64,000 nucleotides of DNA from a phage. The stretch's first letter is position 1, and the number at the start of each line of letters is the position of its first letter. The position numbers and the translations under genes were made by a program. The notes under the pieces are model-generated. The model saw only the letters and a list, made by a program, of their open reading frames with translations, ran no database searches and had not been told where the DNA came from. The stretch lies in sequence record PX853108.1. One strand, 5' to 3'. Shown piece after piece: positions 6,399 through 45,304 of this stretch.

Positions 6399-6430
6399 AG
6401 TTAAAAATAAAAGACTCCCCGAAGGGAGTC
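6399..6430 (-). terminator. rho-independent terminator (minus strand), UUCG tetraloop
   Basis: GACUCCC-UUCG-GGGAGUC followed by UUUUAUUUUUAA, just downstream of gene 6441-6821. Confidence 0.6.
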
Positions 6431-6440
6431 TAGTGATTGA

Positions 6441-6821
6441 TTAGAAAGTCAGTTTACGAGCATATTTATTCTCGTCTGCTGGGATGTCAGCAGCCTCTGC
6501 TTTCACACGACGAAGTTGAACTTGCAGGTTAATGATACCTTCCTCACCTGGTTCCAGGTTCTGAGCATACGCGATTAACTGTTCCAGCAAGTCGTTCTGT
6601 GCACAACGCATAGCACGGAAGTCAGCATTGCTGCTATTAGTAGGCAGCGGTTCCTGAGTATCCAGTGGAATACCAGTAGGCAGTGAGATGAATTTCTCAT
6701 CATCAGAGCCTTCGTTAGCTACATAACCAATGTTCAGCCAGAACTGAGCTTTTGGTTTGTCAGTTTTAGCAGTGGTAGCAGCAGCGTTAGATTGACCGAA
6801 AGTGAATTTTTGAATAGCCAT
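6441..6821 (-). CDS. early protein (126 aa), first gene of a hairpin-promoter transcription unit
   Basis: ORF in track trimmed to internal ATG at 6821 with RBS GGAGAG; about 100 nt downstream of predicted +1 at 6922. Confidence 0.5.
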
Positions 6822-6917
6822 TTTGTACTCTCCAGATTTATGTGATTTACGGGTGAACTCGTCGGTGAGAACACCCAAACAAAAGGATAAAAGTTCAATG
6901 ATTAGTGGATGCATTTA

Positions 6918-6939
6918 CATCCTTTAGATGCGGAGCATC
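6918..6939 (-). promoter_or_regulatory. N4 virion-RNAP-type hairpin promoter (CATCC-TTTA-GATGC GGA GCATC); predicted +1 at 6922
   Basis: 5-bp stem, GGA loop, -8G/-11G, +1/+2 CC; near-identical layout to recalled N4 P2 CATCC-AAAA-GAAGC GGA GCTTC. Confidence 0.65.
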
Positions 6940-7009
6940 TTTCTTTTAAAGATAGTGCGAGTTAGTTAACTTAAAGTAGATAGTTATCTACTTTTGACTA
7001 TCTATCTAA

Positions 7010-7040
7010 TGTTCAAAACAGGAGACTCCGAAGAGCCTCC
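7010..7040 (-). terminator. rho-independent terminator (minus strand), UUCG tetraloop
   Basis: GGAGGCUC-UUCG-GAGUCUCC followed by UGUUUUG, downstream of gene 7049-7372. Confidence 0.55.
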
Positions 7041-7048
7041 TATGTGAC

Positions 7049-7372
7049 TTATTCTTTAGTCAGGATGTCGATGACTTTGGAATATTCTGCGTTATAGATA
7101 CGAGCGTTCTCTGAATCCTTGCAGAAGTCCTCGATACTTTTCTTACGCAGAGTCTCAGTCATAGCTGTTTCCTCTGCCAGTTTATTAACAAAGGTATGCA
7201 TTTCTAATTTAGTACGAATGGCTTGTTTCTCTGCCATCGTACTAACATATGAATTAAGCATACCTACTGCTTTAGTTGCTGTGCTGAATGTATCTGCAAC
7301 AGTAGTAGCAGCTGAGTTAACAGTACCAAGTAAAGTTCCTGCGGTCATACGTACAGTAGCTTGAGTAGTCAT
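7049..7372 (-). CDS. early protein (107 aa), first gene downstream of outermost hairpin promoter
   Basis: ORF in track trimmed to internal ATG at 7372 with RBS GGAGAT; about 115 nt downstream of predicted +1 at 7487. Confidence 0.5.
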   Translation of the reverse strand: MTTQATVRMTAGTLLGTVNSAATTVADTFSTATKAVGMLNSYVSTMAEKQAIRTKLEMHTFVNKLAEETAMTETLRKKSIEDFCKDSENARIYNAEYSKVIDILTKE

Positions 7373-7482
7373 GATGATATCTCCAATAGTTAATGAATAA
7401 TGAGGTTGCCTGTGGATGCACAGGCACATCGTAAGGGATACATGTCCAATGGCTCATGAGATAAGGAGCTTACGATCTCGCA

Positions 7483-7504
7483 TATCCGTAACATGCGGAG
7501 CATG
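7483..7504 (-). promoter_or_regulatory. N4 virion-RNAP-type hairpin promoter (ATATCC-GTAA-CATGC GGA GCATG); predicted +1 at 7487
   Basis: 5-bp stem, GGA loop, -8G/-11G, +1/+2 CC on template strand. Confidence 0.65.
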
Positions 7505-7960
7505 TAGACGAACGAAGTTCGTCAAAAATGTTTTATAAAGATGTAGGCGCGTGCGCAAGCCGAAGGCTTGCGTGCGTGCCGAAGATATGCACATAAGCCC
7601 ATGGGCTTGCTTGCAAGCCTAGTGTGTGTAACGTGTAAGGTGGGGTAGGGTAGTGGCTACACGGTCAACATACCGGGGGGGATGGTTGAGTGTAAGGGTG
7701 TAGCCCTAGGTGTAACACTATAGCCATACATAGCTATCACAATTTTGACATGCAAAAATATTATAGGCACTATCTCTATAAGCAGATAACTTTGAGGTAC
7801 TAACCTGAAAGATGGTTGAGGTATCTATCCTCTATTCATCATAGCGTTTGATACTTAAAACCTCATACAGCTTACCATTTACAAGTAATGGTCCTCCCAC
7901 TTCTATGAAAGCCAGACTGTGTACTATCACTGGTTCAGGTAAGCCCTTGACTGTTACATA
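7505..7960. other. non-coding, locally GC-rich, hairpin-dense region; candidate genome terminus / terminal-repeat or origin region
   Basis: No ORF; hairpins GACGAAC-GAA-GTTCGTC (7507-7523), GCAAGCC-GAA-GGCTTGC (7555-7571), AAGCCC-ATG-GGGCTT; G-run ccggggggg; sits just upstream of the outermost early promoter. Confidence 0.3.
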
Positions 7961-7967
7961 CCACATG

Positions 7968-8297
7968 TTAATCCTTATACGCAGTTAAATAGGAGGGAGC
8001 ATACACCAAGTGAGGGGTTTGTAATTCATTCGTAATACCAAAGGTTAGAGAGTACTTATCCGTATTCACATGCCAGGGGGAGTACATGTAAGAGGACCAT
8101 GGTAGTTCCTTTCCTGGTTCAAGAACTTCTACAATAGTTTCCTTATTTAGTAATAAAGCTAATCCTTTAACTTCGTGTAGTGTTTGTTCATCCGGTACTA
8201 GGATAATAGGAGTGAGCCTACCTGGTACAAGGTCTTGTAAGGTTGTATGGGTAGTGGGGTTAGAACTACGAGCATAACCTATCTTAGTAAGTTTCAT
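7968..8297 (-). CDS. paralog family member 1 (109 aa), unknown function
   Basis: Shares core IILVPDEQTLHEVKGLALLL ... VEVLEPGKELPW ... SPWHVNTDKY with six neighbouring ORFs. Confidence 0.55.
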   Translation of the reverse strand: MKLTKIGYARSSNPTTHTTLQDLVPGRLTPIILVPDEQTLHEVKGLALLLNKETIVEVLEPGKELPWSSYMYSPWHVNTDKYSLTFGITNELQTPHLVYAPSYLTAYKD

Positions 8298-8331
8298 TTA
8301 ATATCCTAAGTGCTTGGGTTAGTAGCATATG

Positions 8332-8703
8332 TTAACTTTTTGTGATTACATCCCAATGAGGTGGCATATTAATATCCCAAGGAAGCATCTTTCCAGATTC
8401 AAGTATTCTTACAGACCTGAAGGAGTTACCTTCTTTTACCATACTGGTTCTTACTGTTACTGGTAAGAAGATATGAAAGTAGTCACCTTCTGGTGCAAGG
8501 TAAGTATCCCCTTCATTGAGAATAACTATCTTTGCATTGCTGTTAGTAAGAAGTTTATGCCCCTGTGCAAAGTCTGCTAACTCTCCTGGTTCCATTATTA
8601 GCGTTGGAGTTCCATAGGTCATAATGTGGATGATTGCTTTCTCCGGTTCTGAGGAATAGTGCAGTAAGTCTGTACCATTCATACCTAAGAGCTTAACGTT
8701 CAT
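8332..8703 (-). CDS. paralog family member 2 (123 aa), unknown function
   Basis: Divergent copy: KIVILNEGDTYLAPEGDYFHIFL ... VRILESGKMLPW. Confidence 0.5.
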   Translation of the reverse strand: MNVKLLGMNGTDLLHYSSEPEKAIIHIMTYGTPTLIMEPGELADFAQGHKLLTNSNAKIVILNEGDTYLAPEGDYFHIFLPVTVRTSMVKEGNSFRSVRILESGKMLPWDINMPPHWDVITKS

Positions 8704-8742
8704 GTTTTAGTACCTGTATCTGATAAGGAGATGTGTTTAGTT

Positions 8743-9027
8743 TCATTGCCTTTCCTTGTAGATTGGGGTGTTACCCTCGAAGGATAGGATGTACTTGTCT
8801 GTATTGAGATGCCAAGGACTAAAGCTACCCTGCCAGGACATAGGTGTTCCTGGTTCAAGTAGATGTACTTCTGCCTTCTTACTGTATAAGAAAAGTAATC
8901 CTTGTAATTCATGCAGAGACTGCTCATCTGGAACCAAGATAAGTACATCAGCGTCTAGATTCGCTATATCTTTATGACGGTAGTAGTCATCCTCATGTAC
9001 TGCTGAATAAATTTTACTGATAACCAT
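8743..9027 (-). CDS. paralog family member 3 (94 aa), unknown function
   Basis: LILVPDEQSLHELQGLLFLY ... HLLEPGTPMSW ... SPWHLNTDKY. Confidence 0.55.
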   Translation of the reverse strand: MVISKIYSAVHEDDYYRHKDIANLDADVLILVPDEQSLHELQGLLFLYSKKAEVHLLEPGTPMSWQGSFSPWHLNTDKYILSFEGNTPIYKERQ

Positions 9028-9347
9028 TAGAGGCTCTCGTCGCTAGATAAATATGAGGTAGAAGGATAGAGGGTAATAAGTCTACCTGTTAGGGTAGTAA
9101 CTACCATAGGCTCAGCAGTAGATAGTACGAATACCTGTGCAAACTCAGATATCTCAACTGATGTATCTATCTTAATGAAAGTGATGGGTATGCCTAACAT
9201 TAGACATGTACCTATGAACTCATCAGCCTCTTCATTTGGTTCATATAGGATAGTAGTTCCATCCAGCTCACCATTTAAACAATCCCGTTTAGTTGCTTTA
9301 CTGCGATAGCAACTTGTACTTAGTGCAACTAATGAGTAGAAGTGCAT
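9027..9347 (-). CDS. paralog family member 4 (106 aa), divergent
   Basis: TILYEPNEEADEFIGTCLMLG ... IKIDTSVEISEF; RBS AAGGAAG; stop/start overlap with members 3 and 5. Confidence 0.45.
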   Translation of the reverse strand: MHFYSLVALSTSCYRSKATKRDCLNGELDGTTILYEPNEEADEFIGTCLMLGIPITFIKIDTSVEISEFAQVFVLSTAEPMVVTTLTGRLITLYPSTSYLSSDESL

Positions 9348-9350
9348 AAC

Positions 9351-9620
9351 TTACTTCCTTACATAGTAGTAACGGTATTCACCCTTCTTATAACGACTCT
9401 CCCATTGGTAGTCATCAGATACCATCATGTATGGGATAGGGTCATTGGCGTTATAGTTGGTATAGACAGAAGGAGGGATAATACATACAACCTTACGGTC
9501 ATTACCTGCTAGAAAGAGTTGTCCCCTTACTTCATGGTAGTCCTCTAAGGTAGGAACCAGGATTACTTGATGGGGGTTGCTGTTCATGACTTCTTCTAAA
9601 GTGAAGTCAGTTGTGTACAT
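9351..9620 (-). CDS. paralog family member 5 (89 aa after start trimming)
   Basis: VILVPTLEDYHEVRGQLFLA; start moved to ATG at 9620 with RBS AGGGAG to avoid 110-nt overlap. Confidence 0.45.
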   Translation of the reverse strand: MYTTDFTLEEVMNSNPHQVILVPTLEDYHEVRGQLFLAGNDRKVVCIIPPSVYTNYNANDPIPYMMVSDDYQWESRYKKGEYRYYYVRK

Positions 9621-9630
9621 AGGCTCCCTT

Positions 9631-10029
9631 TCAGCAAAACTGGGGATGGTCATTATGAATTTCATGATGGATTTTCCTTCCTTTAGGAATGGGTCTGAAG
9701 TAAATGGATAGTGTTTTATTAAAGACGTTATGGTCAACAATCATTTCCCAGCCAGGTACTTTATAGAATCTGATTCCTGGAAAGAATGTTTCGAAGTTCG
9801 AGTACTCAGTAAGATCATACACCTTTGGTTCAGTAAGTATCTCAGTGTTAAGTTGCAGGTTGGATAAGAAAAAAGAACCAATAATCTCGTGTGATTCCTC
9901 GCAATCAGGAAAGAATACTGATTGCCTCGGGGATAGCATCTTACTTACTACCTCTGGTTCCTCTAGGTAATATGGTTCTTGCTTGCGTAGTACACCGGTA
10001 ATATCAATATCAAAAGCGTAGATGCTCAT
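9631..10029 (-). CDS. paralog family member 6 (132 aa), divergent
   Basis: VFFPDCEESHEIIGSFFLSN ... TEILTEPKVYDL. Confidence 0.45.
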   Translation of the reverse strand: MSIYAFDIDITGVLRKQEPYYLEEPEVVSKMLSPRQSVFFPDCEESHEIIGSFFLSNLQLNTEILTEPKVYDLTEYSNFETFFPGIRFYKVPGWEMIVDHNVFNKTLSIYFRPIPKGRKIHHEIHNDHPQFC

Positions 10030-10039
10030 AATTGCATTC

Positions 10040-10081
10040 CTCCAGAAAAAGAAATGGGGTAGAGCCTCTCGACTCTACCCC
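10040..10081 (-). terminator. rho-independent terminator (minus strand)
   Basis: 9-bp stem GGGGUAGAG/CUCUACCCC followed by AUUUCUUUUUCU. Confidence 0.5.
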
Positions 10082-10229
10082 TTACCGTTTTCTATCACGG
10101 GTCAGTTCATCACCCTAGATACATGTGTATCGTTAGCCTACTAGGTAGGAAAGGAGCCGGGCAACCCTGACTGTAGAAGTTATTAACTCTTTACGAGTAC
10201 CGCCACTGTCTACTAGGCGGCATGACTAA

Positions 10230-10520
10230 TCACATCGTCACCGTCATCCGAACACTGTCTTTGCTTCGCCTGACGGAGACACTATGAGGTAATTTTGTGA
10301 AGAACACAAGAGAGGAATGACGTTTTTCTAAAGAGTAAGTTTCTCTTGGTTCTAAGATTTTAATGCCGGGTCGATTCTCTAAAAGCATCATCCCAGCTAA
10401 TTCATGATAGGTATCTTCATCGTGAGTAATGATAATATCATTTGAAAGAATACCAGCTTTGGTGTGGTCTAGTTCTTTGTATTCATCTTTAGAGTCGTGG
10501 ACTCTCATATAGATTCTCAA
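10230..10520 (-). CDS. paralog family member 7 (96 aa)
   Basis: IIITHDEDTYHELAGMMLLE ... IKILEPRETY. Confidence 0.5.
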   Translation of the reverse strand: MRIYMRVHDSKDEYKELDHTKAGILSNDIIITHDEDTYHELAGMMLLENRPGIKILEPRETYSLEKRHSSLVFFTKLPHSVSVRRSKDSVRMTVTM

Positions 10521-32223: not shown

Positions 32224-32283
32224 ACTGGCTTACTGTAGAGTAAGTTACCTATATACGATATAAGTTTGAATAGGAAACATGCT

Positions 32284-35200
32284 ATGTCAACATTTGACCG
32301 TCTGGCAGGTTTCGCAGACAGCATCACTAATGCTAAGCAAGTCGATGTCTCTACTGCAACCTCCCGGAAGCAAGCTGCACAGGGGCAAAGCCCTTTCCAA
32401 TTAACCCCAGATAATGCTTACAATCTACAGACTGGACGAGTAGGTAATCTTGGAATCGGTGCATACGAACCAGGTTCACTTCAGGCAGATTTCACTCAAG
32501 CCTCCCCCTTAGAAATCATTAATAAATATGGTAATGAGCAAGGTCTACAGATTCTTAATAGTCGAGCTAATGCTGCTGATGCTGTACGTCAGGACTTATC
32601 TAAACAACGTACTAACGCAGAAGCATTTGGCGATATCCTTTCTGGTGTTGGTCTTGGTGTTGCTAATACCCTTGGGGGCATTGCTGCTCTTGGCACAGGC
32701 TTGGTCAATGATAATGCCGGGGCATCCATTGCTTCCGGTCTTGACTGGTTGAATAAAGGTGTACACAACCTACAGTCCGATGCACTGAATGCTCGCCGTA
32801 ATGTAGTACAGAACCAGAACGTAATATCTGCACAGGAAAATGAGAAACTCTATAAGCAAGATATTGCTAAAGGAGAAAGCGAACTCGTTGCTTCCCTGTC
32901 TCGCATTGGTCGTGATGCTTACGATTCTGTTGCTAATACCCTGTCTAACGGCATGGCTGCTACTGATGGTATTGCTGAAGGTGTAGGTTCTCTGTTTACT
33001 GGTGGCCCATTAATCCGTGGTGTATCTGCACTCGGTAAGGTAATGGTAGGTGGAGATAAAGCTGTTAAGGGTATTACCTTAGCTGCTGAGTTAGGTTCAC
33101 GTCCTGCACGGATTGCACAGTCTGCTGGTCGTGTTGCTGCACCTGCTATAGCAATTGGTGGTATGGAAGCTGGTGGTGCATACCAACAGACTGCTAATGA
33201 AATTATGGAAATGCCATTCAGTGAACTGGCTGCTAAATCTCCAGTATACCAACAGCATATTAAAGATGGTTTATCTCCTGAAGAAGCACGTCGTCAGACT
33301 GCATCTGAAACAGGTATTACTGCTGCTGGCTTAACTGCTCCAGTTGCTGCTCTTACTGGTCCACTGGTATCCAAGTTTGAACTTAACCCACTCAAGGTAG
33401 GTTCACTGGCTGGTGCTGGTTCTAACATGCTGCGTGAGACTGTAGAAGAAGGTATCCAGTCTGGTACAAGTCAGTTCGCACAAAACACTGCAATCAAGGA
33501 AAATGTTGATGCATCTCGTGACATCCTCAAAGGTGTAGGCGAACAAACTGGTCTTGGTGCATTGTATGGCTTTGGTTCTGCTGGGGTTGCTCAAGCTCCT
33601 GGTGCAACTGTTAAGGCTGCTGGTGCTGCCGTTGGTCCTGCTGTACGTACTACCCTGGCTGGTGCTTCTTTGGCTGGTAAGGCACTAGCAAAAGTAGCCT
33701 CCCCTATTACTAACATCCTGGTTCAGCGTGGTGAAGAAGTAGCTAAACGTAACGAACAGGCATCTCCTGTATCTGATGCTACGGTTAATGCTGCTGCACA
33801 GGAAGCTACTGCTCAGGCAGAACAGGCCCAGGCAACCGTACAGGAAGCAGTAGATGCAATGGATATTTCTCCAGAAGAGAAAGCTGCTGCTACCCAGTAT
33901 GCTGCTGACTTAACTCAGGTAATGAAGTTTGATCCAGTAGAACTGGAACAAGCTAGCCCTACAGTCCGTGAAGCTGTTTCTGGTTCCACTAACCGTGTTG
34001 AAGCTATTCAGAAGATGGCTGACCTGGTTAATACTGCCGAAGACCCTAACGTTCAAATGGAAGCTGCAATCCAGATGTACGACAACATCATGTCTATGGA
34101 TAGCTTCATTAACCGTGACCCAGGTGCTCTGGCTAATCTGGAACAAGGCTCTCCTGCTGCTAATATCGTTGACCAATTCTCTGGCCTGATGGCTAACGTT
34201 CAGAATACACCGAAAGTACTTCGTGCATTCCGTGCTATTCATTCCATGATTCAGGAACAGGCAGAAGCAGGTAAACTGAAAGCTACTGAAGAAGCTAACC
34301 AAGCCCAGGCAAACAATATTGCCATGGCTGCTGATATGTCTCCAGAAGTACTGGATGCAGATTCAGTAAACATGGTTCTGAAACATGCAAGTGAAGGTAA
34401 GATTACACTGGGGAATCGTCAGCGTGCTGCCCTGCAATCTGCTGCTGCCTTGTTACAGGGTGCACGAGAATTTGACGCTAAAGCAGAAGAACTAGGCTTA
34501 CGTCCTCAAGACATTGTTAGTAAACAGATTAAAACCGACGAGTCTCGTTCTAATGAAGGCCAGTACTCTGCGTTGCAACATGCTAAACGCATTCGTTCTG
34601 CGTACAACTCTGGTAACTTCGATTTGGCTTCCGCTTATCTCGACGACTTTATGAAGTTCGCCCAGCACATGCAGAATAAGGTCGGAGCGTTGAATGAGCA
34701 TCTGATTTCTGGGAATGCGGATAAGAATAAGTCTGTCCATTATCAGGCTCTTACTCCCTCCCGTGAATGGGTACGTAGTCGTACTGGCCTCGGTGTCAAT
34801 CCGTATGATACCAAGTCTGTTAAGTTTGCCCAGCAAGTAGGACTGGAAGCCAAGACCGTAGCTGATATTGCTAACGCACTTGCTACGGCTTACCCGGAGC
34901 TTAATGTTTCTCATGTTAAGGTTACCCCATTGGATTCCCGTTTGGACAAGCCTGCTGCCCAAGTAGTTAAAGAGTTCCGTCAGGGCAATCTTGATGCTGC
35001 TCAATCCCAACAGACCAATGAACCAGTGAATCAGGTTGATGAATCTCCTGTTACAAAACAGGAACCAGTTACCCCTACTGTACAGACTAAACCCTCTGTT
35101 AGTGAAGCTGTTAAAACAGAACCTACTATTAAAGAGTCTAAACCACAGACTGCAAAAGAACCTGAGAACCAGTCTGAAAAACAGGATGCTGTTGAACAGC

Positions 35201-38200
35201 CTACTGAATCTGAAAGGGATGCTTATGTAAAAGAGAATACTATTTCTCAAGAAACTCTTAATAAGTATGGTGACCGTAGGGAGAGTCCTTGGCTATTTGC
35301 TGATGGTACTGTTGTTGGTTCCAATGGTGACCATATCAGCCTGTCTGATGTATTTGGTCATGATGGTTATCGTGACATGTCTTTGGATACTGGTGCTGTA
35401 CGTTCTACTTTCTACAAAGGAAGTGAGCAACCGTTCGTATCCCTGCAATTGTTTGATAATCAGAAGCTAACTGCTGAACAATTCAATACTGTTCAATCAT
35501 TCGTAGAAGCAAACAATGCACTGATTCAGATTGGTGTAGATACATCTGGGCTTAATACCAATAACGTTGAGAAAGAAGAAGTATCACTGGCTCAACTGAA
35601 AGCAGACTATACCGTTGGTGGTAAACCCCTATCTCAAATGGAAACAGTGTTCCCTGTCTATAACAATGAAAAGACATCGAACCAGTTCCTTAAAGCATTT
35701 TCTCTACCAGAGGAGCCTAAGTCTCGTACCATTGGTTCTGAATCTCCTTTGACTGATGTTAAGAAAGCACTGTCTTCTGCTGCCCGCTTTGAAGCATTCA
35801 CTCAAAAAGAAAATAACGCACTCACGAGTGATGTGATTAAGCGTTACCAGGATTTGTTTGATTTTGGTGAAACTTTGAAGACCACTCTGTCTGACCGTCT
35901 GGCTAAGTTCCTTGCTAACAAGAACGTTGGTAAACGTTTTGCAGAAGGTACTGAGGCTAACCGTTGGGTGGGTGGTAAGTTACTTAACATCGTAGAGAAA
36001 GATGGTGATACCTTTAAGTTCAACGACCAGTTGTTAGAGACTGCTGTACTTGCAGGTTTGCAATGGCGACTAACTGCTACACAGAATGCTGCTGTTAAAG
36101 ACATGAAAGACGTAGCTGCTATTACTGGTGTGGAAGCATCTCTGCTACCAGAAGGTATCCTCGCAGAGTTTGAGAATGCTCAAACCTTAGTAGAGGCTAC
36201 TAACTCACTGGCTCAGAAGATTGAATCCTATTGGGGGCTTAATCGTAATGCTGATGCACCATTGGGTTATACCAAGGGTATCCCAATGGCAATGGCTACA
36301 GAGATTCTGTCTTCTCTCATTGAGATGGGTGAAGTTAAAGAGTCCATGCTGGATGTGTCTGAGATTGACCCAGAATCTAATAAGACCGTTGGTTTGTATA
36401 CCATTGAGAAGTTAGATGATAACGATGCCATTAATAAATTCCCTACTGCTATTGAGGAAGCAGTCCTTCTAGAACCAGTAGAGAAATTGTACTTGGGTGA
36501 TGATATTCCTTCAGTGGCTCAAACTCAGTTACGTAACCCGGCTGTCAAGAATACCCCGGAACAGAAAGCTGCTCTTAAAGCAGAACAGGCTACTGAGTTC
36601 CGTGTACACATGCCCATGGTTAACTTCTATGAAGCATTGGGTCGTGACAACATTCTGGAATTGATGGGTGCTGGTGCTCTTAACCCAGAATTGCTGAATG
36701 TGAATACTGCTAAATCTCTGGAAGGTAAAAACCTGTCCGTGTCTATGGCATATGATTCCTTGTTTGGTGTTATCAATCAGATTAAGGAACAGGAGAATGG
36801 ACTGGATACACCTATTCACTATGGTTACAACATGACCCGTGTAGGTCGTATGCAGATGCTTGGTAAAAATAACCCACAATCCAGTAAGCTGGTCCGTGAA
36901 GCAATCTTACCAACCTTCTCTACCATCGACTTGAGCAATGAAAACAGTCAAACGTTCTCCGATTTCCAGTTAGGTCTGGCTCAGGCATTGGGCATCAAAG
37001 TTCATAAAATGTCTCGCGAAGTTATGTCAGATGAACTGACTAAAGCTCTGGAAGGTAAACTGAAACCTGCCGTTGATATGATGGTTGAGTTTGATAAGTC
37101 TGGACACTTACCTACTGATGCAGTGGATATTCTGAAGACCTCTTTGGGTAATGATAAATCATTTGTAGCTCTCATGGCTCTTATGGAATATGCCCGTTAC
37201 CTTAACAGTGATGACCGTGCCAACTTTAATACCCCACTGTACGTTGAAGCTGATGGTGTAACCAACGGACCAATCAACGCAATGGTATTAATGACTGGTG
37301 GTAAGTTCACCCCAGACTGGATTAAGAATACTGCTAAAGGTGGCTTGTTCTTCGGTAAAGCTGGCAAGACTATGAACGAGCATCATTCGCACGAGGACAG
37401 TGTTGACCTGTATGAAGCATCCACTAATGGTCTGCAACAAGCACTGAATGAATTACGTAGTACTTACCGTAACAACGTTCCTGTTATGAACCAGATGAAC
37501 CATCTCCAGAAATTAATGGACCTGTTCATTAAAGATTTCAATCTTAAGGAAGATGGTACTCTGGACCTGAAACGTGGTATTGCGAAAAACCCACTGACCA
37601 TTACCATTTATGGTTCTGGTGCTCGTGGTATTGCTGGCAAGATGGTTAGTGCAATTACTGATACCATCTACGAACGCTTCAGTGACGTTCTACAAGCTCG
37701 TGCTGCTGACCCTAGCATTTCACCAGCTATGGCTATGTTTGGTAAGGAGGCTGCGTCTGAGGCTGATGCTCAGGCTATGCTGGATACTTTCCTTACTTCT
37801 ATGGAAGCATTGACTGGCAATGTTCCGGTTATGCGTAAAGGTGAGTTGTCTATTCAGCAGGTAGAAGGTGCTCTGACCGGTAAATTAGACCCTCAGAAGT
37901 TTACTGTATCAGGCAATGCTCTGAAGAATTTACAAGAGAACATGCTTCACTTGTTCGTTGAACCAATGCGTACTGGTATCCGAAATACTGTTGGCGAAGG
38001 TTTGATGTACTCTACTGAGAATTTGCAGAAGGCTACCCAGATTCAGTCTCTGGTATTGCAGGATATGTTCCAACAGGCAGTACAGGCTAAGCTGGCAGAA
38101 AAAGAAAAAGACCCAACATGGAAGAAAGGTGATTTCTTAACACAGAAAGAACTGAATGAAATCCAGAATAGCTTAGCTCCACTGGCTCCAATGATTGAGA

Positions 38201-41200
38201 CTGGTTCACAGACTTTCTACATTGCTGGTAGTGAGAATACTGATGTTGCTAACCAAGTATTGGCTACTAACTTAGATGACCGTATGCGTGTACCAATGAG
38301 CATCTATGCTCCTTCACAGGCAGGCGTTGCAGGTATTCCGTTTATGACCATCGGTACTGGTGATGGCATGATGATGCAGACCCTTTCTACTATGAAAGGT
38401 GCTCCGAAGAATACCCTGAAAATCTTTGATGGTATGAACATTGGTATCAACGATATCACCGATGCAAGCCGTAAAGCTAATGAGGCTGTATATACTTCCT
38501 GGCAGGGTAACCCTATCAAGAATGTTTATGATTCCTTTGCTAAGTTCATGAAGAATGTAGACTTCAGTAAACTGTCTGATGAAACCAAACAGGCTATCGC
38601 TAAGTCTGCTCTGGAGTATGACCAGCGTGAGGGTGCTACCGATGACCTGTTACGTGTTGGTGCTGAACAGATTGAACGTAACCTGCGTAACATTGCTTTG
38701 GGTGTAGATATTCGTCACAAGGTAATGGACCAGGTACAGGTCACCGTTGACCAGATGGCTGCTGTTGGTGCTCCTTACGTGAACAACGGTAAAATCTCTC
38801 TGGAAGGTCTGACTGTAGACCAGCAAGTAGCTAAGCTGAACGAACTGTTTGATGCTGAATTAAACAAACGTCGTGATGCAGTTCGTGCTGCTAAAGCAGA
38901 ACCAGTGAAAGAAGTACCGGCTATGGAGAAGGTTGGTCGTGTACTGAAGTCTGGTGTACGTCTGTTGTCTAATACTGCCATTACTAAGCTGGCTAAAGAG
39001 ATGTCTCCTGAACAGCAAGCAGTATTGAAAGAAATACAGAAATCCCTCGCTGCTAAAGACTATAAGGTTGTTTACGGTACACCTGCTCAACTGGATGCTT
39101 ATGCTATTGAGAAGAATATTACTCGCCCAGCACCGGAAGATATTGAAGCTGCTGAAGCTGGTAATGCATATGGCTGGACTAACTTTGAAGATAAGACCAT
39201 CTACTTAGTTACCCCTTCCTTAGAGACTCTGGTTCATGAATTGGTACATGCTACTACTTTTGAATCTGTACTGGCTCATTATGAGGGTACTCCTAATGAA
39301 GCAGTACAGAATATTGAAGACCTGATGAACCAGTTCCTTACTCTGGATGTTAAGGATGAATCTCCGGCTGTACGTGAAGCGTATGCCGATGCACTGAATA
39401 CCATTAATGGTCATTTGTCTAATGGCTTCATTGAACCCGCAATGGCTAAAGCTGCTGCATTGAACGAGTACATGGCTTGGGGTTTAACCAACCGTGAACT
39501 GATTAGCAAGCAGAAGAAAACTACTGCACTTAAAACTATGGTTCAGGCTGTATATGAAGCAATCAAACGTCTGGTATTTGGACGTAAGAAAGCTCCAGCT
39601 AATGCAGATGATATGTTCTCTGGCTTACTGTTTAACTCTGCTGTAGTAATGCGTGGGCAAGCTCCTACTGCTGCTGTAGCTAAAGACACTACTCTGTTCC
39701 ATAACAAAGCATATGGTGACAATACTCGTCTGGAAGAGTTAGGTAAGACCTTTGATAAACTGATTACTGACTACATTGGTTCAGAACCAGTACAGCAAGT
39801 AATTCGTAAAGGTAAATTCTCTGATGCAGTAGTGAATGCAACTAAAGTAACCCGTGATGTTCAGGCTCATGGCTTCACCATGAATATGCAGGAACAACGC
39901 CTCTTCACTAACATTGTTGCTGCATTGGCTACTGAGGCTGCTATTAACCCTGCTGCTCTTGCTCGTGCACAGGAATACTACACGCATGTTACTAAAAACC
40001 TGACTGTTGAAGCATTTATGGCTGACCCTGATAGTACTAACCCTGCTGACCGTTATTATGCACAGCAGAAGTTCGATACTATCATGGGTGCTAACAACAT
40101 TGAGTTTGATGCACAAGGTCGTTCTTCCTTACTGCCTACCTTTGTTGGTCTGGCTATGGTAAGTGAAGAAGTACGTAAGGTTCTGGCTGATATTCCTGTT
40201 ATGAAAGCAGATAAGAAATCAGGCAATACTGTTGACGCAATGCTGACTAACATTGGTACTGCTGCAATGGCTAGCCTGAATGCTCGTGTAGCAGGTGATA
40301 CTAAAGCCACTAACGTACAGGAAGGTATGGATGCACTGGCTCAGACAATCATGCAGACCAGTCTTAATGCAGAATCCTTCTATGATTCCGTTGCTACCCC
40401 TACTGGTAATGCTATCGACCGTGCTAACCAGTATCTGGTGGATTCTATTGATGTACTGTCTACCCGTGCTTTGGAAGGTGCTCGTGAAGTTGCAGCTAAT
40501 ACCAAGAACCCGTTGGTTAAAGGTGCTGCTCATGCTGCACAATTGGTAGCTGCTATTGCTACAGAGAAGAATGGTGCAATCGTAGCCGAAGGTGTTATGG
40601 CTGCAATGAACCAGGGTAAAGTATGGCAACCCTTCCATGACCTGGTTAATGACATAATCGGACGTACTAAGAGCAATGCTTCTGTATACGATTTGATTAA
40701 AGCAGTTCGTGCACAGGTACAGGCTGACCGTCAACAGTTCCGTGAACACTTGCCTACCACTATCGCATCCAAGTTCAGCCGTAAGCTGACTAATGATGAG
40801 TGGAAAGCAATGCATACAGGTATGGGTAAAACTGACTTAGCTGTTCTGCGTGACACTATGTCTCTGGATGAAATCCGTGACCTGCTGTCTGACCAAAAGA
40901 TTGTTGACCGTGAGGTTAATAAACTGGAAGCAGATTTGCAGAAACAAGCAGGACGTAACTGGCCTCTGATTAGTCGTAAATCTAAGCAACTGGCTCAGTA
41001 CATGATTAATGGTACGGTTGGTAATAACCTGTTGCGTAATGCTACTGCAATTTCTCGTTTACTGGGTGAACGTAAGACTACACGTTCTGTTGTAGATGTA
41101 GCTCAACTGGATAAACTCATTACCCTGTATGCACTGGAAGCAATGAATAAAACTGACCGTGAGATGTTATCTTCACTGGCTCAGACAGAAATTGAAGGTA

Positions 41201-43038
41201 TGGACTTTGCTACTTCTTACCTGGTTGGTCAGCGTAAAGATGAAATGGCTAAAGCTAAGTCTGATAGTCGTGCAACCCTGAACCAGTACAAAGGGTATAT
41301 TCCTGGTGAGAACAAACAGGGTGTTAACCTGATTGTTGCTGAAGATAGTCAGTTTGCTGATTTGATTGAGAAATCCTATGTACGACTGGGTACTTATCAG
41401 GGTAGCTCTGCTAATCGTGGTCCAGCACGTAGTTACTACTTTGCACCGGTACAGGCACAGGCTCCATTCTCACAAGGTATCCTACAGAACGTTCGCAATA
41501 CTGCTGGTGGCGTAGACCTTGGCACAGGCTTTACGATGGGAACCATGGTAGCTGGTCGTATTACTGACAAGCCTTCTGTAGACCGTATCACTAAAGCACT
41601 GGCTCGTGGTGAACGCGGTAATGAACCACTGCTGCCTGTATATGATGCCAATGGTAATGTGGTTGCTTACGAGCAATCCATTGACCCTAACATGCTGAAG
41701 CACATCGAAGGTGAGAACCATCTTGCTCGTGCAATTGGTGTATGGCGTGGTCGTCAGGTGGAAGAAGCTAAGGCTCAGCGTTTCAACGATATGCTGATTG
41801 AGAACCTGCATAGCATGTACGAGAACGACATTAAGATGTCTGCTTCTAATAAGTCCCAGTACGTTAACCTTCTTGGTTCGAAACTGGACCCAGTAACTGC
41901 CGATGCTCTTAAACTGATGAACAGTGAAACTCGTCAGAAAGCAGAAAGTCTGTTTGGACCGGGTGAGTTGTGGGTACGTCGTGACATGCTCAACGATGCA
42001 CTGGGTTATCGTGCAGCTTCTGTTGGTGATGCCTGGTCTGGTAATTCTCGTTGGTCCCCAGAAACACTAGATACCTTCAAGAAAGCTATGCTGGGTGTCT
42101 TTGGAAACCGTGCTTATAAGTACGTAATGGGTGGTGAGAATCTGGTTCAAAACTTAGTTAAAGAAGCCAAGACTCTGATTGTAGTTAAGTCAGTAGTCGT
42201 ACCTGCTGTTAACTTCCTGGCTAACCTTTACCAGATGGTTGCTCGTGGTGTACCTGTTAAGAACATTGCTAAGAGCATCCCACAGAAAACTGCTGAGATT
42301 AATCAGTATCTGAAATCTCGCCTGCGTCAGGTAGATGCAGAAGCAGAATTACGTGCAGCTACTAACCCTAACCAGATTCGTAAGCTGAAGGCTGAGATTC
42401 AGTCCATCACGGATAGCCATAAGCGTTTGAGTATCTGGCCTCTGTTAGAAGCTGGTGAGTTTTCTTCAATTGCAGATGCTGGTATTGGACGTGATGACAT
42501 CCTGATTACTGAAGGTAAACTTCACGAATACATGGAAAAGCTGGCTGATAAGTTGCCTAAGTCTGTACGTAATGCTGGTCGTTATGCACTTATCACTAAG
42601 GATACTGCTCTCTTCCAGGGTATCCAGAAGACGGTTGAGTACTCTGACTTTATTGCTAAAGCAATCATCTATGATGAACTGACTCAGCGTAAAGGTAAGA
42701 CCCGAGAAGAAGCACTCGGACGTGTAACGGAAGAGTTCATTAACTATGACCGTTTGCCTGGCCGTTTCCGTGGGTATATGGAAAGTGTTGGTCTGATGTG
42801 GTTCTACAACTTTAAGATTCGTTCTGCAAAAGTTGCAGTGTCCATGATTCGTAACAACCCAGTACATGCTGCTATGGCTATGTTGGCTCCAACTCCTACC
42901 ATGTTTGGTAACGTTGGTCTGCCTATTAAGGACAACATCTTTAGTATTGCTGCACAGGGCAACCTCGGTTACTCCTTCGGATTCGGTATGGGCTTACGTG
43001 CCCATACCCTGAACCCGTGGCTCAACCTCACTAACTAA
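32284..43038 (+). CDS. giant virion-encapsidated RNA polymerase (vRNAP)
   Basis: 3584 aa from ATG 32284 (RBS AGGAAA; track start 32266); central T7-like motifs A EADGVTNGPINAM (near 37245), B LKRGIAKNPLTITIYGSG (near 37560), C KIFDGMNIGI (near 38417). Confidence 0.85.
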   Translation: MSTFDRLAGFADSITNAKQVDVSTATSRKQAAQGQSPFQLTPDNAYNLQTGRVGNLGIGAYEPGSLQADFTQASPLEIINKYGNEQGLQILNSRANAADAVRQDLSKQRTNAEAFGDILSGVGLGVANTLGGIAALGTGLVNDNAGASIASGLDWLNKGVHNLQSDALNARRNVVQNQNVISAQENEKLYKQDIAKGESELVASLSRIGRDAYDSVANTLSNGMAATDGIAEGVGSLFTGGPLIRGVSALGKVMVGGDKAVKGITLAAELGSRPARIAQSAGRVAAPAIAIGGMEAGGAYQQTANEIMEMPFSELAAKSPVYQQHIKDGLSPEEARRQTASETGITAAGLTAPVAALTGPLVSKFELNPLKVGSLAGAGSNMLRETVEEGIQSGTSQFAQNTAIKENVDASRDILKGVGEQTGLGALYGFGSAGVAQAPGATVKAAGAAVGPAVRTTLAGASLAGKALAKVASPITNILVQRGEEVAKRNEQASPVSDATVNAAAQEATAQAEQAQATVQEAVDAMDISPEEKAAATQYAADLTQVMKFDPVELEQASPTVREAVSGSTNRVEAIQKMADLVNTAEDPNVQMEAAIQMYDNIMSMDSFINRDPGALANLEQGSPAANIVDQFSGLMANVQNTPKVLRAFRAIHSMIQEQAEAGKLKATEEANQAQANNIAMAADMSPEVLDADSVNMVLKHASEGKITLGNRQRAALQSAAALLQGAREFDAKAEELGLRPQDIVSKQIKTDESRSNEGQYSALQHAKRIRSAYNSGNFDLASAYLDDFMKFAQHMQNKVGALNEHLISGNADKNKSVHYQALTPSREWVRSRTGLGVNPYDTKSVKFAQQVGLEAKTVADIANALATAYPELNVSHVKVTPLDSRLDKPAAQVVKEFRQGNLDAAQSQQTNEPVNQVDESPVTKQEPVTPTVQTKPSVSEAVKTEPTIKESKPQTAKEPENQSEKQDAVEQPTESERDAYVKENTISQETLNKYGDRRESPWLFADGTVVGSNGDHISLSDVFGHDGYRDMSLDTGAVRSTFYKGSEQPFVSLQLFDNQKLTAEQFNTVQSFVEANNALIQIGVDTSGLNTNNVEKEEVSLAQLKADYTVGGKPLSQMETVFPVYNNEKTSNQFLKAFSLPEEPKSRTIGSESPLTDVKKALSSAARFEAFTQKENNALTSDVIKRYQDLFDFGETLKTTLSDRLAKFLANKNVGKRFAEGTEANRWVGGKLLNIVEKDGDTFKFNDQLLETAVLAGLQWRLTATQNAAVKDMKDVAAITGVEASLLPEGILAEFENAQTLVEATNSLAQKIESYWGLNRNADAPLGYTKGIPMAMATEILSSLIEMGEVKESMLDVSEIDPESNKTVGLYTIEKLDDNDAINKFPTAIEEAVLLEPVEKLYLGDDIPSVAQTQLRNPAVKNTPEQKAALKAEQATEFRVHMPMVNFYEALGRDNILELMGAGALNPELLNVNTAKSLEGKNLSVSMAYDSLFGVINQIKEQENGLDTPIHYGYNMTRVGRMQMLGKNNPQSSKLVREAILPTFSTIDLSNENSQTFSDFQLGLAQALGIKVHKMSREVMSDELTKALEGKLKPAVDMMVEFDKSGHLPTDAVDILKTSLGNDKSFVALMALMEYARYLNSDDRANFNTPLYVEADGVTNGPINAMVLMTGGKFTPDWIKNTAKGGLFFGKAGKTMNEHHSHEDSVDLYEASTNGLQQALNELRSTYRNNVPVMNQMNHLQKLMDLFIKDFNLKEDGTLDLKRGIAKNPLTITIYGSGARGIAGKMVSAITDTIYERFSDVLQARAADPSISPAMAMFGKEAASEADAQAMLDTFLTSMEALTGNVPVMRKGELSIQQVEGALTGKLDPQKFTVSGNALKNLQENMLHLFVEPMRTGIRNTVGEGLMYSTENLQKATQIQSLVLQDMFQQAVQAKLAEKEKDPTWKKGDFLTQKELNEIQNSLAPLAPMIETGSQTFYIAGSENTDVANQVLATNLDDRMRVPMSIYAPSQAGVAGIPFMTIGTGDGMMMQTLSTMKGAPKNTLKIFDGMNIGINDITDASRKANEAVYTSWQGNPIKNVYDSFAKFMKNVDFSKLSDETKQAIAKSALEYDQREGATDDLLRVGAEQIERNLRNIALGVDIRHKVMDQVQVTVDQMAAVGAPYVNNGKISLEGLTVDQQVAKLNELFDAELNKRRDAVRAAKAEPVKEVPAMEKVGRVLKSGVRLLSNTAITKLAKEMSPEQQAVLKEIQKSLAAKDYKVVYGTPAQLDAYAIEKNITRPAPEDIEAAEAGNAYGWTNFEDKTIYLVTPSLETLVHELVHATTFESVLAHYEGTPNEAVQNIEDLMNQFLTLDVKDESPAVREAYADALNTINGHLSNGFIEPAMAKAAALNEYMAWGLTNRELISKQKKTTALKTMVQAVYEAIKRLVFGRKKAPANADDMFSGLLFNSAVVMRGQAPTAAVAKDTTLFHNKAYGDNTRLEELGKTFDKLITDYIGSEPVQQVIRKGKFSDAVVNATKVTRDVQAHGFTMNMQEQRLFTNIVAALATEAAINPAALARAQEYYTHVTKNLTVEAFMADPDSTNPADRYYAQQKFDTIMGANNIEFDAQGRSSLLPTFVGLAMVSEEVRKVLADIPVMKADKKSGNTVDAMLTNIGTAAMASLNARVAGDTKATNVQEGMDALAQTIMQTSLNAESFYDSVATPTGNAIDRANQYLVDSIDVLSTRALEGAREVAANTKNPLVKGAAHAAQLVAAIATEKNGAIVAEGVMAAMNQGKVWQPFHDLVNDIIGRTKSNASVYDLIKAVRAQVQADRQQFREHLPTTIASKFSRKLTNDEWKAMHTGMGKTDLAVLRDTMSLDEIRDLLSDQKIVDREVNKLEADLQKQAGRNWPLISRKSKQLAQYMINGTVGNNLLRNATAISRLLGERKTTRSVVDVAQLDKLITLYALEAMNKTDREMLSSLAQTEIEGMDFATSYLVGQRKDEMAKAKSDSRATLNQYKGYIPGENKQGVNLIVAEDSQFADLIEKSYVRLGTYQGSSANRGPARSYYFAPVQAQAPFSQGILQNVRNTAGGVDLGTGFTMGTMVAGRITDKPSVDRITKALARGERGNEPLLPVYDANGNVVAYEQSIDPNMLKHIEGENHLARAIGVWRGRQVEEAKAQRFNDMLIENLHSMYENDIKMSASNKSQYVNLLGSKLDPVTADALKLMNSETRQKAESLFGPGELWVRRDMLNDALGYRAASVGDAWSGNSRWSPETLDTFKKAMLGVFGNRAYKYVMGGENLVQNLVKEAKTLIVVKSVVVPAVNFLANLYQMVARGVPVKNIAKSIPQKTAEINQYLKSRLRQVDAEAELRAATNPNQIRKLKAEIQSITDSHKRLSIWPLLEAGEFSSIADAGIGRDDILITEGKLHEYMEKLADKLPKSVRNAGRYALITKDTALFQGIQKTVEYSDFIAKAIIYDELTQRKGKTREEALGRVTEEFINYDRLPGRFRGYMESVGLMWFYNFKIRSAKVAVSMIRNNPVHAAMAMLAPTPTMFGNVGLPIKDNIFSIAAQGNLGYSFGFGMGLRAHTLNPWLNLTN

Positions 43039-44308: not shown

Positions 44309-44565
44309 TAGTAGCTTTAACGCAGCTAACGAGGCTTGTATGAGTGCTAGGATTTGTAACTCCCAGCATATCCCCACCGTTTTAGCTGACGGCAAACAGA
44401 GATTGATAGTCTCAGAGGATACTTTACTCAGGCGAGTATTATAGTCTACTCATACTCACACTACCCTAACGGGTAGTATGTTTGCAATACCTAGAGTGCC
44501 GGACTGTCTCACCGGCATTGTCTTTAGAGTGCAATGCAATCAGGACTATGTTCTCTATTAATGAG

Positions 44566-44638
44566 TACCCACTACTGGATTTGAACCAGTGACCTTCCGA
44601 TTATTAGTCGGTTGCTTTCCCCGTCTAAGCTAAGTGGG
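44566..44638 (-). tRNA. tRNA-like gene, canonical cloverleaf; anticodon reads AAU by hand (Ile-type, unusual A34)
   Basis: Acceptor GCCCACT/AGTGGGT, D-arm GCTT...AAGC, anticodon arm ACCGA-CUAAUAA-UCGGA, T-arm ACTGG-TTCAAAT-CCAGT; folded by hand only. Confidence 0.55.
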
Positions 44639-44643
44639 CATAA

Positions 44644-44719
44644 ATGGTTACCCGGACAGGATTCGAACCTGTGTCCTAGTTGGTTTACTAGTGGGGCTTT
44701 ACCACTAAGCCTACCGGGT
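44644..44719 (-). tRNA. tRNA-like gene with encoded CCA and non-canonical anticodon loop (6 or 8 nt)
   Basis: Acceptor TACCCGG/CCGGGTA, D-arm GGCT...AGCC, T-arm ACAGG-TTCGAAT-CCTGT, then A-CCA; anticodon region CTAGT-AAACCA-ACTAG does not give a 7-nt loop. Confidence 0.45.
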
Positions 44720-45304
44720 ATTAATGAGTGAGTCACGCCAGACTTTAACTGGCTCCTTCTTCGCAATCCTTACATACCCCTACATAATTATTGCGTTAAG
44801 CTTTTTTGTTTAAGTTTAAGTGAAGGCGTTCTTGCTGACTCATAATAGGTTGGGCGTTTGACGAATGACTAGTTCGTTACTACCCGTTTGCCATAAGTAC
44901 CTGGCGACTTTGGTTTGAGGTGGGAGTCCGAGTCCTGTACAGCCTTACCGTTCACACATTGGCAGCGTATCTAGAATAGCACTTCCGGCAACTGGATTTA
45001 ACTGTTACACCTCAAATCTGGTAGGGGCGTCCAGAAGTCTCATCTGGTACTTACGCCGTCGTATGGTTACGACTTACCCCCATAATCTTTCTAATTCAGA
45101 GTAGCACTGCTCCACGTTTGGCCTTTGAACTCCGGGATGGATTAGTGCAATGCTACTTTGAATTAGTTGTCAGGGATTCCACCTGGCTCCATCTGTTTTT
45201 ATAGTCACTCAGATATCGTCTGGACTCTTTACTATGGGACTCACCGGCTACTTAGAGTAACTACGGTAAATATTATTCCACAGCTTACATTGATGTCGCA
45301 TCCC

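Follow-up and report, generated by a model that had tools for sequence, protein, structure and literature searches.

Genome ends and early promoters of N4-like phages

Gamaleyavirus comprises the G7C-like Schitoviridae (the N4 family), with hosts among Escherichia, Shigella and Klebsiella. In N4 the promoter-bearing left end of the genome is injected first, and once about 500 bp are inside, transcription draws in the remainder (PMC4496689); an earlier sequence-only reading of the DNA described here, which took the injected end of N4-type phages to be the one that carries the promoters of the virion RNA polymerase, agrees with this. The N4 promoters are hairpins extruded through gyrase-driven supercoiling, where extrusion and stability are determined by a C:G closing pair and by a loop with a 5′ G and a 3′ A, and where specific recognition by the polymerase involves -11A/G, -10G, -8G and +1C (PMC4496689). 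On the polymerase side, R904 contacts the -8G of the promoter stem.

The genome ends of several relatives have been located. The G7C record is annotated with a stretch that 'contains terminal repeat' at 1-1160 and 71758-72917, and the G7C ends have been verified by Sanger run-off (PMC11640937). Mimir124 has a direct terminal repeat of 401-403 bp as determined by PhageTerm, and its authors report the same left end as in G7C (PMC11640937). In IME11, read-start pile-ups are found at 62722 and at 63122-63124, 401 bp apart (PMC3896407). The N4 record opens with TGGTGGGGCTACACCCC, which is homologous base for base with TGACAGGGGCTACACCC of G7C. In the usual arrangement, seen in ten relatives and in N4, a terminal block of about 88 bp is followed directly by the hairpin of the outermost early promoter (P1), from which about 40 bp lead to the start of gp1.

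With 1160 bp in the G7C record and 401 bp elsewhere, the length of the terminal repeat varies within the genus. The annotated 1160-bp stretch of G7C ends beside the third promoter-like hairpin of that phage, the repeats of IME11 and Mimir124 being 401 bp. The pairing of G7C (72,917 bp, 1160-bp repeat) with Mimir124 (72,768 bp, 401 bp) prompted the idea of a constant packaged length, with the repeat measured by a headful mechanism. This idea was discarded, as the record ends 312-314 bp past the block in about ten relatives of 72.7-76.1 kb and 301-323 bp past it in three more, and the IME11 boundary is sharp and sequence-defined (PMC3896407).

The window and its gene layout

The DNA analysed here, referred to as the window, is a stretch of 64,000 nucleotides from a phage (PX853108.1). 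Judged by homology, it is a Gamaleyavirus (G7C/N4-like Schitoviridae) genome in reversed orientation relative to N4. Searches with 6900-8400 and 7430-7967 (megablast, blastn) returned Gamaleyavirus relatives as the only matches, with identities of 80-97% and a query coverage below 80% in every matched record. Early genes are carried on the minus strand below about 7400, the right-end genes form a small minus-strand group at 7832-10520, and a 3590-aa ORF at 32266-43038 is the virion RNA polymerase, with 68% identity to N4 gp50. As called mechanically, the polymerase ORF begins with TTG (32266-32283); the alignment to N4 gp50 puts the true start at an ATG six codons further downstream (MSTFDRLAGF). 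The features that frame the interval between the early and the right-end genes are as follows.

7049-7372, minus strand: gp1 homologue, the first early gene; 107 aa, 86% nucleotide identity to G7C gp1 (G7C 121-456 corresponds to window 7396-7061)
7373-7486, minus strand: 5′ UTR of the gp1 transcript, lengthened to about 114 nt (about 37 nt in G7C and N4), reckoned from a predicted start site
7491-7505, plus (template) strand: P1, the outermost virion-RNA-polymerase hairpin promoter, ACATGC-GGA-GCATGT; +1 predicted at 7487, transcribing leftwards
7832-7966, minus strand: N4 gp72 homologue, the last right-end gene; 44 aa, found by tblastn

The homologue of 7049-7372 is called N4 gp1 in the annotations of G7C and IME11. 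Its start codon and ribosome-binding site line up with those of the relatives, and by this homology gp1 starts at 7372 and not at 7429. The protein encoded at 7832-7966 shares 68% identity with N4 gp72 and 91-95% with its counterparts in PE007, pSb-1 and 24-32N (tblastn), the pSb-1 homologue being annotated as gp35. With these two genes in place the true non-coding span is 7373-7831 (459 bp). A span of about 450 bp free of ORFs had been described from the letters alone; it needs shifting, as 7832-7966 is a gene. The small ORFs 7454-7594, 7416-7538 and 7657-7770 were considered as genes and rejected on inspection, since they lack a ribosome-binding site, show no conservation as reading frames and run across P1 or the conserved terminal block. 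Sigma-70 promoters and intrinsic terminators in 7430-7830 do not exceed chance expectation, and a search of 6800-8400 with the Rfam 15 covariance models gave no match in 7373-7831, the sole weak match (E = 0.68) lying outside that span.

Near the predicted physical end (6400-7750) the sign of the GC skew turns from negative to positive, with minus-strand genes on both sides, and the skew of the right-end genes (7832-10520) is opposite to that of the early genes.

The predicted terminus and direct repeat

The left ends of N4, G7C, IME11 and Mimir124 have homologous counterparts in the window, at the following positions.

7626-7713: conserved terminal block, corresponding to the opening ~88 bp of N4 and G7C; holds the G7 run and GGTGGGGTAGGGTAG
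7711-7714: predicted physical left terminus, also the concatemer junction, where the ends of four mapped relatives align
7114-7713: predicted direct terminal repeat of about 600 bp, by homology to the IME11 and Mimir124 boundaries
7714-7797: conserved non-coding sequence that flanks the right genome end and immediately precedes the right copy of the repeat; equals G7C 71673-71757

Placement of the terminus was anchored on the invariant GGGTGTAGCCC (window 7696-7706). On this anchor, position 1 of N4 falls at 7711, position 1 of G7C at 7712 and the ends of IME11 and Mimir124 at 7712-7714, and the DNA in the virion most likely starts at about 7711-7714 and runs toward lower coordinates. The terminal block has a mean identity of 90% over its full length in 10 relatives and corresponds to G7C 1-88 and N4 1-89, the aligned stretches running over G7C 7-88 and N4 5-89. 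As in the four mapped phages, it is an 88-bp homologous block with a poly-G/C tract, and it is embedded in the same order of gp72, junction, block, P1 and gp1; this synteny is formed here by the gp72 homologue, the junction, P1 at 7491-7505 and gp1 at 7049-7372. The junction bases themselves differ from those of the relatives (CCCTAGGTGTAAC versus CCCCAGCCACACC), so that the cut could be shifted.

By homology, the two boundaries of the 401-bp repeat in IME11 and Mimir124 correspond to window positions 7114 and about 7713. The boundary at 7114 lies within gp1, and the first 259 nt of gp1 (its 5′ part) are inside the predicted repeat. Since the repeat measures 401 bp in these relatives and about 199 bp of extra sequence are inserted here (120 bp separate the block from P1, and the gp1 leader is longer by about 80 bp), a repeat of about 600 bp is predicted. 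The stretch is single-copy within the window, as expected for a permuted assembly in which the repeat has been collapsed. P1 thereby comes to lie about 215 bp from the predicted end, compared with about 95 bp in N4-like relatives.

The suggestion that a genome end and a terminal repeat would be met in this region thus holds as to location, by homology to the termini of four relatives, with the qualification that the predicted repeat reaches leftwards beyond the interval originally singled out, to about 7114. The reasoning that had led to it, however, is largely coincidental. The conserved block is not rich in hairpins: its single-stranded DNA fold gives z = 0.04 to -1.7 in the five relatives tested (z = -2.65 for the block of the window itself), and the hairpins reside in a lineage-specific insert. 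A conserved terminal hairpin in the 88-bp block was considered and set aside, as the relatives' single-stranded folds are no better than those of shuffled sequences. An inverted repeat GGCTACAC/GTGTAGCC is present in N4 and most relatives, and occurs in other registers in G7C, Jgk1 and VLCpiP4a.

The terminal block is the likely recognition site for cutting the genome ends, and block and flank (7714-7797) together would probably supply the end-cutting signals used in packaging. The flank is 70-84% identical, at full coverage, in Gamaleyavirus relatives, and its N4 counterpart, which follows gp72, reads CCTATAAT(A/T)TTTTT...AAAAT.GT.ATAG. Fixed ends, a short repeat and conserved non-coding sequence on either side are shared with T7-type concatemer junctions; the two differ in that N4-like phages have one unique end, the other being heterogeneous, and in that there is no sequence similarity between them. 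A perfect TATAAT is found on the minus strand within the flank. The flank motif CCTATAATATTTTTGC, considered as a repeated promoter class, does not recur elsewhere in the window. The G-run of the terminal block varies in length, from G7 in the window and G7C through G9 in N4 and a metagenomic contig from IMG/VR to G12 in PE007, differences that could be real variation or homopolymer sequencing error.

A hairpin-rich insert beside P1

Between the terminal block and P1, where the usual arrangement has the two in direct contact, the window carries 120 bp of additional sequence. The insert and the features in and near it are listed below.

7506-7625: lineage-specific GC-rich hairpin insert, 120 bp, between P1 and the terminal block
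7507-7523, plus strand: hairpin 1, GACGAAC-GAA-GTTCGTC; 7-bp stem, promoter-like C-GAA-G loop on the template strand
7546-7580, plus strand: hairpin 2, GGCGCGTGCGCAAGCC-GAA-GGCTTGCGTGCGTGCC; 16 pairs including three G.T wobbles, formed on the plus strand only
7554-7572: core of hairpin 2, CGCAAGCC-GAA-GGCTTGCG; 8 perfect pairs
7595-7608: 14-nt palindrome AAGCCCATGGGCTT, that is AAGCC-CATG-GGCTT
7604-7619: fourth hairpin, GGCTTG-CTTG-CAAGCC, which overlaps AAGCCCATGGGCTT; the two are mutually exclusive
7622-7629: (GT)4
7675-7681: G7 run

Hairpin 1, the G7 run and the GT repeats are present as they had been described from the sequence alone, and the local GC richness is borne out (0.49 at 7450-7749 versus about 0.43 for the whole window). 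The hairpin noted as GCAAGCC-GAA-GGCTTGC is found at 7555-7571, with a perfect stem that is in fact 8 bp long rather than 7, and the third one, AAGCCC-ATG-GGGCTT, was a misquotation of the 14-nt palindrome. All of the hairpins named at that time fall inside the insert.

The density of hairpins is far beyond chance. Perfect hairpins with a stem of at least 6 bp and a 3-nt loop number 3 in 7490-7625 against 0.04 expected (0 of 2000 shuffles), and the single-stranded DNA fold of 7480-7720 has z = -6.1, with none of 200 shuffles equally stable; the insert alone (7506-7625) gives z = -5.4. Hairpin 2 is stabler on the plus strand (-17.8 kcal/mol) than on the minus strand (-12.9), and an AT-rich spacer (7524-7545) lies between hairpins 1 and 2.

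Promoter-likeness of hairpins 1 and 2

The outermost early promoter to which the sequence-only reading had referred is real. P1 is homologous to P1 of N4 and of G7C, is kept in all relatives, and has the bases -12A, -11G, -10G, -9C, -8G and +1C, as do N4 P1 and P2 and G7C P1 and P3. Transcription starts were predicted at 11 nt from the centre of the hairpin loop. Hairpins of the form C-GNA-G with a stem of at least 5 bp occur exactly five times in the whole 64 kb, all on the plus strand, compared with 0.48 per strand in shuffled sequences; they are the canonical promoters at 2472-2486, 6926-6940 and 7491-7505, together with hairpins 1 and 2. The three canonical promoters all carry GC-GGA-GC and a template +1C. 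They lie at about 215 (P1), 780 and 5230 bp from the predicted end, distances that leave P1 alone within the first ~500 bp, the length injected before transcription in N4.

All canonical promoters that were checked (three in the window, two in N4 and three in G7C) have -12A, -11G/A, -10G, -9C and -8G, and all but the second G7C hairpin (which has G) have template +1C. Hairpins 1 and 2 possess the determinants of extrusion, with C-GAA-G on the plus (template) strand, and share -12A, -11A, -10G and -9C with the promoters. They lack the remaining contacts, with -8A and, at template +1 (7504), G in hairpin 1, and with -8C and, at template +1 (7552), T in hairpin 2. Against a range of 5-7 bp in promoters, the stem is 7 bp in hairpin 1 and 8 bp, extendable to 16, in hairpin 2. 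The polymerase of the window retains the N4 contact residues K114, R119, W129, D901 and R904, so an altered specificity is not expected. Hairpins 1 and 2 thus pass as extrusion-prone and promoter-like and fail as promoters.

Compared with N4 promoters P1-P3, hairpins 1 and 2 agree in their location on the template strand, in a G-N-A loop closed by C:G, and in the -11 purine, -10G and -9C, and they differ in that -8G, +1C and a start region resembling T(T/A)A(T/C)GGA are missing, in that the stem of hairpin 2 exceeds 7 bp, and in that neither is conserved across the genus. DNA mini-hairpins of the d(GCGAAGC) type are extra-stable, and cruciforms are extruded by supercoiling. With these, hairpins 1 and 2 have the C-GAA-G loop and perfect inverted repeats in common; their stems are longer.

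Distribution and history of the insert

The insert was sought in 76 related phage records and is absent from them, except for a 27-bp degenerate piece in PE007 and PD205, which occupies the same site and contains a degenerate hairpin 1. Searches of E. coli genomes, of plasmids and of the remainder of the window gave no match, and exact 22-mer matches in metagenome and genome collections were dismissed as chance, as they involve the palindrome only. A pattern scan recovered the insert from one IMG/VR contig, UViG_3300006879_000003, and from no other. Depending on the relative, the insertion site holds 0, 27, about 96 or 120 bp. Since most relatives with the same terminus lack the insert that contains the named hairpins, these are not a conserved structure of the genome end.

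The genes that flank the insert in the UViG contig are 77-91% identical to those of the window, and the insert itself is about 95% identical, which could reflect constraint rather than neutrality. The two carriers do not differ in hairpin 1 or in the two small 3′ hairpins. Hairpin 2 lacks its 3′ arm in the contig, owing to a 19-bp difference between GCCGAAG direct repeats, and is therefore not required in the nearest relative. The 3′ arm present in the window is the exact reverse complement of the 5′ arm of the contig, a pattern that fits a snap-back inverted duplication, or the loss of one by slippage. The three substitutions in hairpin 2 all keep pairing as G.T on the plus strand, for which the odds by chance are about 1 in 8, a hint that this strand is under selection.

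Nature of the interval and of its hairpins

The interval is probably where the right and left ends of a linear N4-like (Gamaleyavirus) genome meet in a permuted assembly, with an insert of probably dispensable promoter-like hairpins lying between the terminus and P1. From about 7711-7714 downward, this junction would consist of the 88-bp terminal block, the 120-bp insert, P1 and gp1, and the direct repeat of about 600 bp (7114-7713) would sit at both ends of the packaged DNA. Hairpins 1 and 2 have the features published for supercoil-driven extrusion and may extrude; most likely they are promoter-like palindromes that the phage could do without, and hairpin 2 looks like the product of a snap-back inverted duplication. 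Their greatest effect would be to draw off supercoiling beside P1 and so tune its firing. It is unlikely that the C-GAA-G hairpins are functional supercoil-extruded elements, be it as a lineage-specific 'supercoil sink' or a docking array for polymerase or SSB, which would tune how readily the first-injected 200 bp activate the early promoter, or as promoters with relaxed -8/+1 positions. A functional reading draws some weight from the identity of the insert in its two carriers (about 95%, above that of the flanking genes), from the G.T pairing kept by all three substitutions in hairpin 2 and from the greater stability of this hairpin on the plus strand.

A role of hairpins 1 and 2 as additional functional promoters of the virion RNA polymerase, forming a tandem array or serving as decoys that hold the injected polymerase near P1, is suggested by their agreement with the three canonical promoters in strand, 3-nt loop and C:G closure, by the shared -12A, -11 purine, -10G and -9C, by the GAA loop, which is also that of N4 P1, and by their closeness to P1, no more than 70 bp away, in the DNA that enters first. 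Such a role is nevertheless unlikely, as -8 is A or C instead of G and template +1 is G or T instead of C, both being specifically recognised positions (PMC4496689), and as retention of R904 and D901 gives no reason to expect a polymerase of altered specificity. The stem of hairpin 2 (8-16 bp) is moreover above the 5-7 bp range, hairpin 2 lacks an arm in the closest relative, and most relatives carry neither hairpin. Equally, the cluster might be thought of as a replication origin, as the sequence-only reading had proposed, or as an element of end replication or end protection (for example through structures of the 3′-ended G-rich strand after resection). It lies within about 200 bp of the predicted end and inside the predicted repeat, and would thus occur at either end; hairpin 2 is stabler on the plus strand, whose 3′ end lies at the terminus; and a sign change of GC skew and the AT-rich spacer at 7524-7545 are close by. 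Yet conservation would be expected of an essential replication element, and the insert is missing from N4, G7C, IME11, Mimir124 and at least 70 other relatives with the same terminus, which makes an origin unlikely; no iterons or repeated iteron family were found in the region, the retrieved literature maps no origin here, and the shift in skew matches the physical end and the gene content. Taken together, these points leave an origin or end element very improbable.

That the insert arose as an artefact of assembly or library preparation at a genome end, for instance through a fold-back chimera or from an adaptor remnant, is hardly credible. It is palindromic and near a physical end, where assemblers often err, and its hairpin 1 contains a 9-mer, GAACGAAGT, which may also occur in a nanopore adaptor strand. 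The same insert is, however, present in an independent metagenomic contig whose flanking genes are 77-91% identical, and is on that ground real; a related piece of 27 bp occupies the same site in PE007 and PD205, and the insert lies 90-200 bp inside the end and not at it. The preferred reading, an N4-type genome-end junction with a small insert, leaves the finding mostly ordinary: the ends are built as is known for N4, nothing is new apart from the short run of promoter-like, extrusion-prone palindromes, and these hairpins are a minor, lineage-specific curiosity.

Consequences for the record and for early promoter spacing

The record should be re-oriented to start at about 7713 on the minus strand, with a terminal repeat of about 600 bp, a change that matters for genome comparisons and for the engineering of N4-like therapeutic phages. 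The insert shows that the spacing from terminus to first early promoter is flexible, with 0 to 120 bp accommodated at this site. If the hairpins extrude, the phage would offer a natural variant in which the effect of neighbouring cruciforms on supercoil-dependent promoter activation could be tested.

The gp1 leader and tRNA genes

The second stretch of additional sequence lies between P1 and the ribosome-binding site of gp1, measures about 80-95 bp, and is missing in the relatives and present in the UViG contig. Its similarity to the sequence that precedes the gp1 homologue in Erwinia phage MIF8, a member of a different genus, is 82%. The hairpin at 7407-7426, TGCCTGTG-GATG-CACAGGCA, falls within the gp1 5′ UTR and is one compensatory pair apart from TGCATGTG-GATG-CACATGCA of MIF8, a change that suggests a conserved, structured gp1 leader.

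Outside the junction, ARAGORN identifies a tRNA-Ile gene (anticodon aat) on the minus strand at 44565-44720, followed directly, within the same interval and on the same strand, by a tRNA-like gene with an irregular anticodon loop.
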